Positions 53,040 to 54,558 of a DNA stretch of 64,000 bases are shown here, piece by piece. The DNA is from Obrimoposthia wandeli. Lineage: Eukaryota. The number at the start of each line of letters is the position of its first letter. Positions within the stretch are counted from its first letter, which is position 1. The stretch spans positions 434,001 to 498,000 of the forward strand of contig CDROCS010002093.1 of NCBI GenBank assembly GCA_977020255.1, written 5' to 3'. The notes below the pieces were generated by a model. The model was not told where the DNA came from. It saw only the letters and a list, made by a program, of their open reading frames with translations, and ran no database searches. The translations under genes and the position numbers were made by a program.

Positions 53040-53552
53040 TCAATTGTCCACGTCCGGGTTGTTCCTGTCATTTAGGAACAGCATGACCTGCTCCAGTGGC
53101 AGGTCCGGGAACGATGGGGTTTCCTCCTGGAACAGGGCCATCTGTTGTCGGAGACTGAGGTGCGGATTGGGGTGGAATAGGGTGGTGTAGCGTCCGTGCA
53201 CCCCGCGATTCTCGATCCACGTTTGACGACCGCGTTGCCACGAGCGGCAGTCGCGGCTTGATCGCCACCTCTCCCGGATGGAGAGTTTCGCGTCGCGACG
53301 GCGCGCGATGCACTCGGGGCATTGGCAATGTTCGCCACCAATGCAGCTGGTGGGCGAGCGAGTGCCCTTGGGTCGGCCTTGACACTGGAGCTTCCACTCC
53401 GCGAAGGGGGCACGGTACACCGGGCATGTGACGTGGCCCTCGGGCCGAGTTCGGGCCCACGTATAGAGGCACGCCTCGTAAAATTTGTGACGACAACCGA
53501 CAGGGGATGCCGATGTCGTCCAAATTTTCTCCAGGCAGACTGAGCACTTCAT
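53040..53552 (-). CDS. RING-H2-derived protein 3 (two zinc ligands replaced by Tyr) with CxCxxC motif
   Basis: CSVC..CRHKFYEAC..W..CPVY; CQCPEC; first ATG at 53552 directly after tttttgtgcag. Confidence 0.75.
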   Translation of the reverse strand: MKCSVCLEKIWTTSASPVGCRHKFYEACLYTWARTRPEGHVTCPVYRAPFAEWKLQCQGRPKGTRSPTSCIGGEHCQCPECIARRRDAKLSIRERWRSSRDCRSWQRGRQTWIENRGVHGRYTTLFHPNPHLSLRQQMALFQEETPSFPDLPLEQVMLFLNDRNNPDVDN

Positions 53553-53901
53553 CTGCACAAAATAATTACCTTTTCAATTTGGGGTTCGATTGTTTTCGTC
53601 GTTAGTTTACGAAGTTAATATTTTAGTTTCAAAATTAAAACCTTAGTGTTTAATCCTACCGAGTTTTGTTCCGATTTTAGGCATGTTTACACATTCATAC
53701 TAAGCATAAAAAGTGTCTTTTAGAATTTCAGTATAATAATTACAATTTCAATTAAACAACATACATAAAAATGGTAATGGTCGTTTTACAGTTTCACAAG
53801 ATTATACAATTATGATTACAATTATGGTAGCTAATTTATCGCGGTATGCGATACACAGGGTAGTTCATGATGTCACGTTCAAGTCAGAAAGTTACCTTCG
53901 G

Positions 53902-54198
53902 TTACTGCTGGTTGTTGGGCTGGCCTATACGTCGCTCCTCCACGCAGAACGAGCACCAGCAGTCGCAGATGTTTTTCCAGCAGTGTACTATGGGTACCAC
54001 TGCTTGGAGGCTGTCCCGGTTGTACACGTAGTGCACCGAGAAGGTTGCTCTGCACATCGGGCAGGTTGGGTAGTCTAGGGGATTGTTGCTGTTGGCAATT
54101 GGAATCCACGTCTCGAGGCATTCGATATGGAACTGGTGATCGCAGTTGTTGGGTTTGGTGTAGATGCTCTCGTAGCAGATGGAACATTCTCCAGACAT
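53902..54198 (-). CDS. RING-H2 E3 ligase-like protein 2 with CWCxxC motif
   Basis: CSIC..CDHQFHIECLETW..CPMC, complete C3H2C3 set. Confidence 0.88.
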   Translation of the reverse strand: MSGECSICYESIYTKPNNCDHQFHIECLETWIPIANSNNPLDYPTCPMCRATFSVHYVYNRDSLQAVVPIVHCWKNICDCWCSFCVEERRIGQPNNQQ

Positions 54199-54258
54199 TA
54201 CTGTGAGAGGGTTGATGTTGAATTTAGGCTCGATTGAGGACTGGTGATTGTGCGATGT

Positions 54259-54558
54259 TTACACAAAAGTGGTCGGATTTGGTCGTTCTGACAGACAGTA
54301 GTAACACCAACACTCTCTGAAATTCTTCCAATAGAATATCACCTGTATATATACATCCTCTTGGTTGGGTTCTATTATGACGAACTTTGTGAATTGTCTT
54401 CTGCATACAGGGCAACGAGGGTATGTTGGATGTACGAACTGTCCATAAGTTCTGATCCATGTTGATAAACATTCCTCGAGATGTAAATGGTTGCAGGTTT
54501 CGGGTCTTGTTCTTCGTTCGGTTAGATCTTCCAAACATATTGGGCATTCTTCGGACAT
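54259..54558 (-). CDS. RING-H2-like protein 1 with CWCxxC motif
   Basis: CPIC..PETCNHLHLEECLSTW..CPVC; second His displaced by one residue. Confidence 0.85.
   Translation of the reverse strand: MSEECPICLEDLTERRTRPETCNHLHLEECLSTWIRTYGQFVHPTYPRCPVCRRQFTKFVIIEPNQEDVYIQVIFYWKNFRECWCYYCLSERPNPTTFV

Follow-up and report, generated by a model that had tools for sequence, protein, structure and literature searches.

Three short genes, here called a, b and c, lie on the minus strand of the 64,000-nucleotide stretch of Obrimoposthia wandeli DNA analyzed here (the window), where they form a cassette between the stop of a long polyprotein frame and the 3' LTR of a retroelement. The features of the insertion are as follows, with the type of evidence given in brackets where it is not a plain ORF.

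50841..50844, minus strand: target-site duplication of 4 bp, repeated ahead of the 5' LTR (sequence)
50845..52744, minus strand: 3' LTR of about 1.9 kb, TG...CA, containing a 55-bp tandem array (LTR pair)
53040-53552, minus strand: RING gene c, ATG-started ORF of 170 aa; RING-H2, hairpin, four-Cys module and predicted helical tail
53553..53570, minus strand: T-rich run and acceptor-like YAG, abutting the start of c (sequence)
53902-54198, minus strand: RING gene b, ATG-started ORF, 98 aa in this copy; ligands complete
54201..54215, minus strand: pyrimidine run and acceptor-like YAG, whose end is 2 nt from the ATG of b (sequence)
54259-54558, minus strand: RING gene a, ATG-started ORF of 99 aa; RING-H2, hairpin and four-Cys module
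54560..54575, minus strand: splice-acceptor-like YAG, whose end is 1 nt from the ATG of a (sequence)
54682..57618, minus strand: C-terminal part of the polyprotein, hydrophobic, with probable membrane-spanning segments (by eye); interrupted in this copy
57426..59621, minus strand: polyprotein part with a dual-specificity phosphatase (DUSP) domain, followed by a second, weaker one (domain search)
59594..61212, minus strand: integrase, in two frames in the window copy (domain search)
61213..63876, minus strand: IAP-type RING, protease, reverse transcriptase and RNase H (domain search)

All three products of the window copy were matched by the Pfam zf-RING_2 profile (E = 2.4e-8 for a, 8.6e-8 for b and 7.1e-6 for c). 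An earlier note on this DNA had described an N-terminal RING-H2 domain with the E2-contacting tryptophan in each of them. The domain and the tryptophan are indeed present, but the zinc ligands are incomplete in two of the window genes: a has lost one RING ligand and one cysteine of the downstream motif, and c has lost two RING ligands. Scored by the pattern C3H2C3 (order C-x2-C..C-x-H-x2-H-x2-C..C-x2-C), all eight ligands are found in 35 of 39 copies of a, 43 of 44 copies of b and 37 of 38 copies of c, the copies counted being those open through the motif from 48 loci (two duplicate loci dropped). In a second set of 20 loci, the ligands occur together with CPxCR in 11/12 (a), 8/11 (b) and 8/8 (c) copies. 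The window copy of the cassette is partly decayed, and most sister copies keep the ligands. The product of b measures 101 aa in most copies, as against 98 aa in the window; that of c is longer by about 75 residues and varies more between copies than those of a and b.

The model of b (pLDDT 77.6, and 75–93 over residues 1–70; of five models, one alone scored above 61) found its best solved matches among RING/U-box domains (Z 7.0, rmsd 2.2, 68 aligned). A Foldseek search of the PDB with the models of b and c returned no match at E ≤ 0.001, and only RING entries were listed. The hydrophobic, E2-facing residue of the first CxxC is present in every copy (39/39 for a, 44/44 for b, 38/38 for c), and the tryptophan that contacts E2 in 38/39, 44/44 and 38/38 copies, respectively. 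CPxxR, whose arginine corresponds to the cationic linchpin that sits after the last RING cysteine, was found in 39/39, 43/44 and 35/38 copies. According to PMC12326332, a cationic linchpin primes E2~ubiquitin. Together with the RING model of b, the kept E2-contact residues and linchpin arginine make ligase activity likely: judged by RING biochemistry, a, b and c are quite likely to be RING-H2 ubiquitin ligases, each RING binding E2~ubiquitin and acting as a ligase. RING and E2 form a textbook pair, and nothing hints at contacts among a, b and c themselves. The same residues bear on a reading in which the proteins are zinc-binding adaptors or decoys devoid of ligase activity. They might, for instance, be sinks for E2, pair with host RINGs in a dominant-negative manner, or be matrix-like small RING proteins similar to arenavirus Z. 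In favor of this reading, the proteins are very short, so that a and b could hardly accommodate a substrate-binding domain, and their Cys module has no known family; yet hardly any copy of a, b or c has lost the E2-contact set or the linchpin arginine, and an E2 sink would retain the contacts but have no need of the arginine. We regard such a role as improbable.

Downstream of the RING, the motifs CWCYYC, CWCSFC and CQCPEC had been reported, followed by basic residues. These motifs are present, with arginine after them, but the complete unit is C-x5/6-C-x-C-x2-C: it comprises four cysteines rather than three, the extra one lying upstream and being masked in the window copy of a. The four-Cys motif is kept in 38/39 (a), 42/44 (b) and 37/38 (c) open copies. 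The earlier note could assign it to no known family, and neither a profile search nor the RING ORFs compared here supplied one. Among the 1.84 billion representatives searched, 8,126 matched at E ≤ 0.001, and none of the best 150 of these, which were checked by pattern, carries CxCxxC within 50 residues after the RING; CxCxxC is likewise absent after the RING from every RING ORF of 44 viral loci. A word-index search with b produced one candidate, which was not significant. A remnant PHD finger was considered as the source of the Cys motif and rejected, since the spacing of the tryptophan differs. The module of b was modeled at low confidence (pLDDT about 60). It may represent a new small zinc-binding unit, in which the hairpin and the four cysteines would bind a third zinc.

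Sequence identity to a is 37% for b and 30% for c (range among the paralogs, 30–37%), and the three genes do not align as DNA, which indicates that the duplications are old. The proposal that the genes arose by duplication and then diverged strongly holds clearly for a and b, whose post-RING alignment score was reached by none of 5,000 shuffles. For c, the post-RING alignment is weak (163 and 76 of 5,000 shuffles reached the score), and the predicted structures of b and c agree in the order RING, beta-hairpin, Cys cluster and helix. Thus, a and b are clearly paralogs, and c is probably one. An Atlas search with the tail of c gave best scores of 0.76, from which neither novelty nor absence follows.

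The earlier note had also likened the proteins to the viral ligases ICP0, IE2/PE38 and p28. This likeness stands with respect to architecture, a RING with a hairpin after it, and is no sign of descent or of a common target. ICP0, IE2/PE38/CG30 and p28/N1R came top of a fold search (E 1.6e-4 to 5e-3) whose library holds viral proteins only, so that rank in it shows no descent; identity is 16–27%, and these viral proteins are mostly of 260–800 aa and mostly of the RING-HC type. Gene a had one weak Baculo_IE-1 match, under the cut-off (E 0.007). Baculoviruses also combine an IAP, a DUSP and several RING genes. By fold and features, a, b and c would act like small viral RING ligases; membership of the ICP0/IE2/PE38/p28 families is not claimed. 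The nearest language-model clusters are small RINGs of giant DNA viruses and Preplasmiviricota (scores 0.91–0.94, 83–196 aa), and two adjoining RING-H2 genes occur in many of the 44 viral loci. Unlike a, b and c, the RING ORFs of these loci have no CxCxxC after the RING, and the counts of shared features (135–169) stay below the same-family mark of 170.

Each of the three genes starts immediately behind a splice-acceptor-like site. The distance from a YAG to the start codon is at most 2 nt in 46/47 copies of a, 46/46 of b and 43/45 of c, where the exceptions are b–c fusions, compared with 25 of 245 control ATGs within the element (~10%) and 105 of 1,484 in the flank (~7%); the copies are kin, so the effective count is three of three genes, themselves of one ancestor. 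The second set gave 19/19, 18/19 and 15/15. Lying behind a 16-kb ORF, the genes need RNAs of their own, and separately spliced RNAs probably express them. The simplest reading would be alternative splicing from a shared donor: a common upstream putative donor would be joined to three alternative acceptors, and each gene would become the first ORF of its own spliced RNA. A TATA-like word about 40 nt upstream of the acceptor-like site of a, present in 39 of 46 copies, makes an internal promoter possible instead of splicing; such a promoter before a and spliced-leader trans-splicing, which flatworms have, are the less simple alternatives. None of the 15 of 41 contig joints listed (four runs, one sample) falls at the acceptors, which has no bearing on expression. 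Small 3' genes reached through alternative acceptors, here predicted, recall the complex retroviruses, in which spliced accessory genes such as Vif, Vpr and Vpu send host factors to degradation. Those proteins are adaptors for host cullin ligases, whereas the element described here would supply the catalytic RING itself.

A further ORF overlaps a and b in the +2 frame (53879..54547, minus strand; L024:6119-6796), starting 11 nt after the ATG of a. It runs for 225 codons over a, the spacer and b, has its full length in 31/47 and 6/19 copies, and is split into two pieces in the window copy. Under the codon usage of the cassette, the chance of meeting no stop over a and b is ~9e-4. Considered as a fourth gene, the ORF showed no protein-level constraint in shared variants and no Pfam match.

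The cassette was proposed to travel on a mobile element, and this was confirmed: an LTR pair with TG...CA ends and a 4-bp duplication encloses the genes, which are common to other copies of the element. The class of the element, the fourth cysteine, the acceptor-like sites and the decay of the window copy had escaped the earlier note. The 3' LTR is 95.5% identical over 1,740 bp to the 5' LTR, which lies beyond the window (L021:2941-4677); the 55-bp array occupies positions 51473-51933, and alignment between subfamilies fails in the middle of the LTR. About 3.7 kb of the middle is missing from the window copy, as is the leader, Env and the primer site being deleted, and full copies measure 22–24 kb (six longer copies compared). 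The long frame of full copies encodes Gag with a CCHC motif, a weak ubiquitin-like domain (E 0.02–0.03, under the cut-off), a fusion-type Env, a protease-like domain, BIR (PF00653, E 6.6e-10), RING, protease (PR), reverse transcriptase (RT), RNase H, integrase, two DUSP domains and hydrophobic segments. The order PR-RT-RNase H-integrase is that of Ty3/Gypsy, and Env, upstream of PR, is a Monjiviricetes-type fusion protein (PF24664, E 1.7e-94). The polyprotein comprises ~5,400 codons by span; the positions of stops vary from copy to copy and some natural frames stay open for >4,000 codons, both of which fit a single polyprotein. The protease-like domain between Env and BIR is of the aspartic type (L095:6728-9817, L096:1-1500) and is the second of its kind, besides the protease before RT. 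After the integrase (59000-59900, minus strand), three similar segments look IPT/TIG-like by eye and have no Pfam match. Of the BCL2-like domain that Burro-like elements have before Env, the trace here is a BH2-like word seen by eye, with no Pfam or PDB match; Ankyrin, MATH, Smc and dUTPase-like motifs, in which Burro-like elements differ from one another, gave no Pfam match at E 0.05. The primer site, 8 nt after the LTR, is the complement of host tRNA-Met in 3/5 copies and 4/6 further copies; the host tRNA-Met genes that match it form a tandem array with a period of ~284 bp (L078; G000:C2252:1-12000). No clear polypurine tract was found before the 3' LTR (52745-52775), where the conserved stretch is not purine-rich. 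Such a lack, and the 8 nt that separate the LTR from the primer site, are unusual for Gypsy elements.

By architecture, the carrier fits a Burro-like, env-bearing giant Ty3/Gypsy element. PMC6431247 describes planarian Burro/GYPSM1 as a giant Gypsy-like element of >30 kb with a polyprotein of 4,873–5,140 aa. Shared with the present element are the single, very long polyprotein, Gag with CCHC, a ubiquitin/SUMO-like domain (a weak match here, under the cut-off), BIR, an Env in frame between gag and pol that resembles mononegavirus fusion proteins, thousands of copies, and cargo tied to apoptosis and ubiquitination (PMC6431247). Differences, by the text of that paper alone, are that accessory ORFs are mentioned for Burro, but neither a DUSP nor stand-alone RING genes at the 3' end; that Ankyrin and MATH domains were found there using HHpred, whereas the present element has no Pfam match to them; and that Burro exceeds 30 kb with two or three CCHC motifs, compared with 22–24 kb and one CCHC here. 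Interference of Burro-type elements with host apoptosis and ubiquitination has been proposed, and the authors of the proposal deem it worth testing (PMC6431247). The accessible text of PMC11410931 merely names Burro, and that of PMC12801592 mentions neither RING, Burro nor envelope. What appears to be new here is the three stand-alone RING-H2 genes, the four-Cys module and the acceptor-like starts, this kind of giant retroelement being already known.

A search with RT-RNase H gave generic Gypsy matches only, up to 48%, with no Burro sequence among them, and a word-index search with the Env region found no homolog within the length limits. Related families were sought in the genome through Env and through BIR, the best 68–150 candidates being scored. 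The Env search led to 30 loci, all 88–97% identical to the family of this element, and to no other family with a RING cassette; none of the families reached through BIR has one either, and the BIR carriers are Maverick/Polinton-like.

The element is abundant. A motif pattern for a and b had 7,277 exact genomic matches (84 of the first 100 listed were a-type), and a 20-base word from the LTR end had 3,394, each against a control of 0, in an assembly that may hold both haplotypes. For b and c, at least 150 genomic matches each were obtained (150 of 150 scored). Among 20 loci picked by the motif of a, a and b occur together in all 20 and c in 17; of the three loci without c, one stops at a contig end. 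Sharing among element copies is the opposite of what the earlier note had named as speaking against its proposal, namely ordinary host RING genes not shared in this way. Ordinary or domesticated host RING genes beside a transposon are largely refuted, and we find this origin barely credible: the host does have its own large family of single-exon RING genes, but a, b and c are enclosed by the LTRs and travel with them, and their Cys module is absent from all 24 host-type RING ORFs listed for the 30 best RING loci. The host family consists of RING-H2 genes of 290–340 aa that are often clustered (L131–L156).

Several copies carry rearranged cassettes. In two of them, a deletion has fused the beginning of b with the main part of c, and one copy reads through from a into b (fusion and read-through loci L028, L029 and L006). 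The c genes combine pieces of different subfamilies, a mosaic pattern that template switching would be expected to produce.

Selection was assessed on split sets, because the initial choice of loci rested on similarity to b or c, a criterion that lowers dN. At loci not picked by the gene tested, dN/dS was 0.35–0.51 for b (n = 24) and 0.23–0.31 for c (n = 13), with intervals below 1, and 0.51–0.67 for a, with intervals that reach or pass 1 in three of four settings. Full in-frame copies at the 20 loci picked by the motif of a gave 0.33 for b (0.20–0.48, n = 11) and 0.25 for c (0.17–0.35, n = 8); at the same loci, a gave 0.96 (0.62–1.51, n = 12, kappa capped at 10). Omega from codon models was 0.45 (a), 0.13 (b) and 0.23 (c) in the first set, whose values for b and c carry a downward bias. 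Purifying selection acts on b and c, which are kept as proteins, with dN/dS of about 0.2–0.35. Copies of a differ little, post-insertion decay dominates, and internal branches make up 10% of tree length; a second residue shared by at least two copies is seen at 1 of 14 Cys/His columns and at 10 of 85 others, an uninformative contrast. Under another reading, the cassette is hitch-hiking DNA, no longer of use, in a recently amplified element. It is most plausible for a, whose dN/dS is indistinguishable from 1 in pairwise tests, and it agrees with the decay of the window copy and with the lack of c from some copies. Against it, the ligands, frame and acceptor of c have been retained in subfamilies separated by a mean dS of 0.8, and dN/dS of b is 0.13–0.5 in every test. 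For the cassette as a whole, we hold this to be very improbable. An arms race was considered as the cause of the variability of c and rejected: dN/dS is 0.2–0.3, and divergence tracks position along a pol-to-LTR gradient, in which DNA identity falls from 96–99% in RT through a and b to 73–96% in c (most of its length) and on to the LTR start. The variability of c is therefore no sign of an arms race.

We favor the reading that a, b and c are selected, element-encoded E3 ligases on a high-copy giant Ty3/Gypsy element, and consider it somewhat more probable than its negation. The other cargo of the element, comprising BIR-RING, DUSPs and the weak ubiquitin-like domain, points to host manipulation. 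The module, the variable residues and the tail of c would select a different substrate for each paralog, and the ligases would tag host defense proteins for removal. The least supported step is that the targets would be restriction, silencing or cell-death factors of the host: it is suggested by the company of the genes, as IAP, phosphatases and Env form a set recalling large DNA viruses, and we regard it as plausible, if short of probable. The whole chain, including the host-defense class of targets, is rather doubtful. The ligases could instead serve the life cycle of the element itself, by turning over products of the polyprotein or by helping enveloped particles to bud in a ubiquitin-dependent way. 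The fusion glycoprotein and the weak ubiquitin-like domain of the polyprotein would suit such a role, as would selection on b and c that is purifying rather than diversifying. However, three paralogs that have diverged so far suggest several different partners, and ordinary Gypsy elements and retroviruses replicate without RING genes of their own. A purely internal function thus seems unlikely to us.

In its boldest form, our preferred reading of selected, element-encoded ligases would describe a spliced accessory E3 set with a new four-Cys zinc module on an endogenous enveloped flatworm retroelement, in which every ligase would have its own target for degradation among the silencing or antiviral factors of the host (PIWI/piRNA components in stem cells, for instance). 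So specific a version is unlikely; if true, the set would form, with the IAP and the phosphatases, a counter-defense kit in the style of large DNA viruses and would help to explain the thousands of copies. Should the substrates be silencing factors, this would be transposon counter-defense by an element-encoded ligase. A literature search, within the openly accessible part of its sources (subscription literature lay outside its scope), found no description of this strategy or of such a cassette. Three stand-alone genes of 100–170 aa are easy to express, assay and knock down compared with a 5,000-residue polyprotein, which makes the apoptosis and ubiquitination question of Burro-type elements tractable.

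The Maverick/Polinton-like elements of the same genome (L253, L256, L258–L262 and L265) encode an A32-like ATPase, an integrase with a chromodomain and a protein-primed PolB. They carry stand-alone BIR-RING genes 33–48% identical to the IAP part of the giant element, and one of them also has a DUSP-like ORF. On several contigs, one Maverick/Polinton-type IAP is present twice, in inverted orientation and ~10.5 kb apart. Judging from these sequences, cargo may be shared between Maverick/Polinton-like and giant Gypsy elements. Beside the insertion in the window lies a decayed BEL/Pao element (45455-49400, minus strand; Peptidase_A17, E 3e-13).

The assembly is mixed (L056–L061): it contains many bacterial-type COX1 genes and one mollusc-like mitochondrial contig, as judged by eye. 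Mitochondrial sequence also occurs in many large contigs and has AAA at two of two COX1 columns at which the mollusc-like contig has Asn. AAA read as Asn corresponds to the flatworm/echinoderm code, which, along with the Burro-like layout, makes a flatworm the likely host, and one such contig also holds the LTR word of the element.
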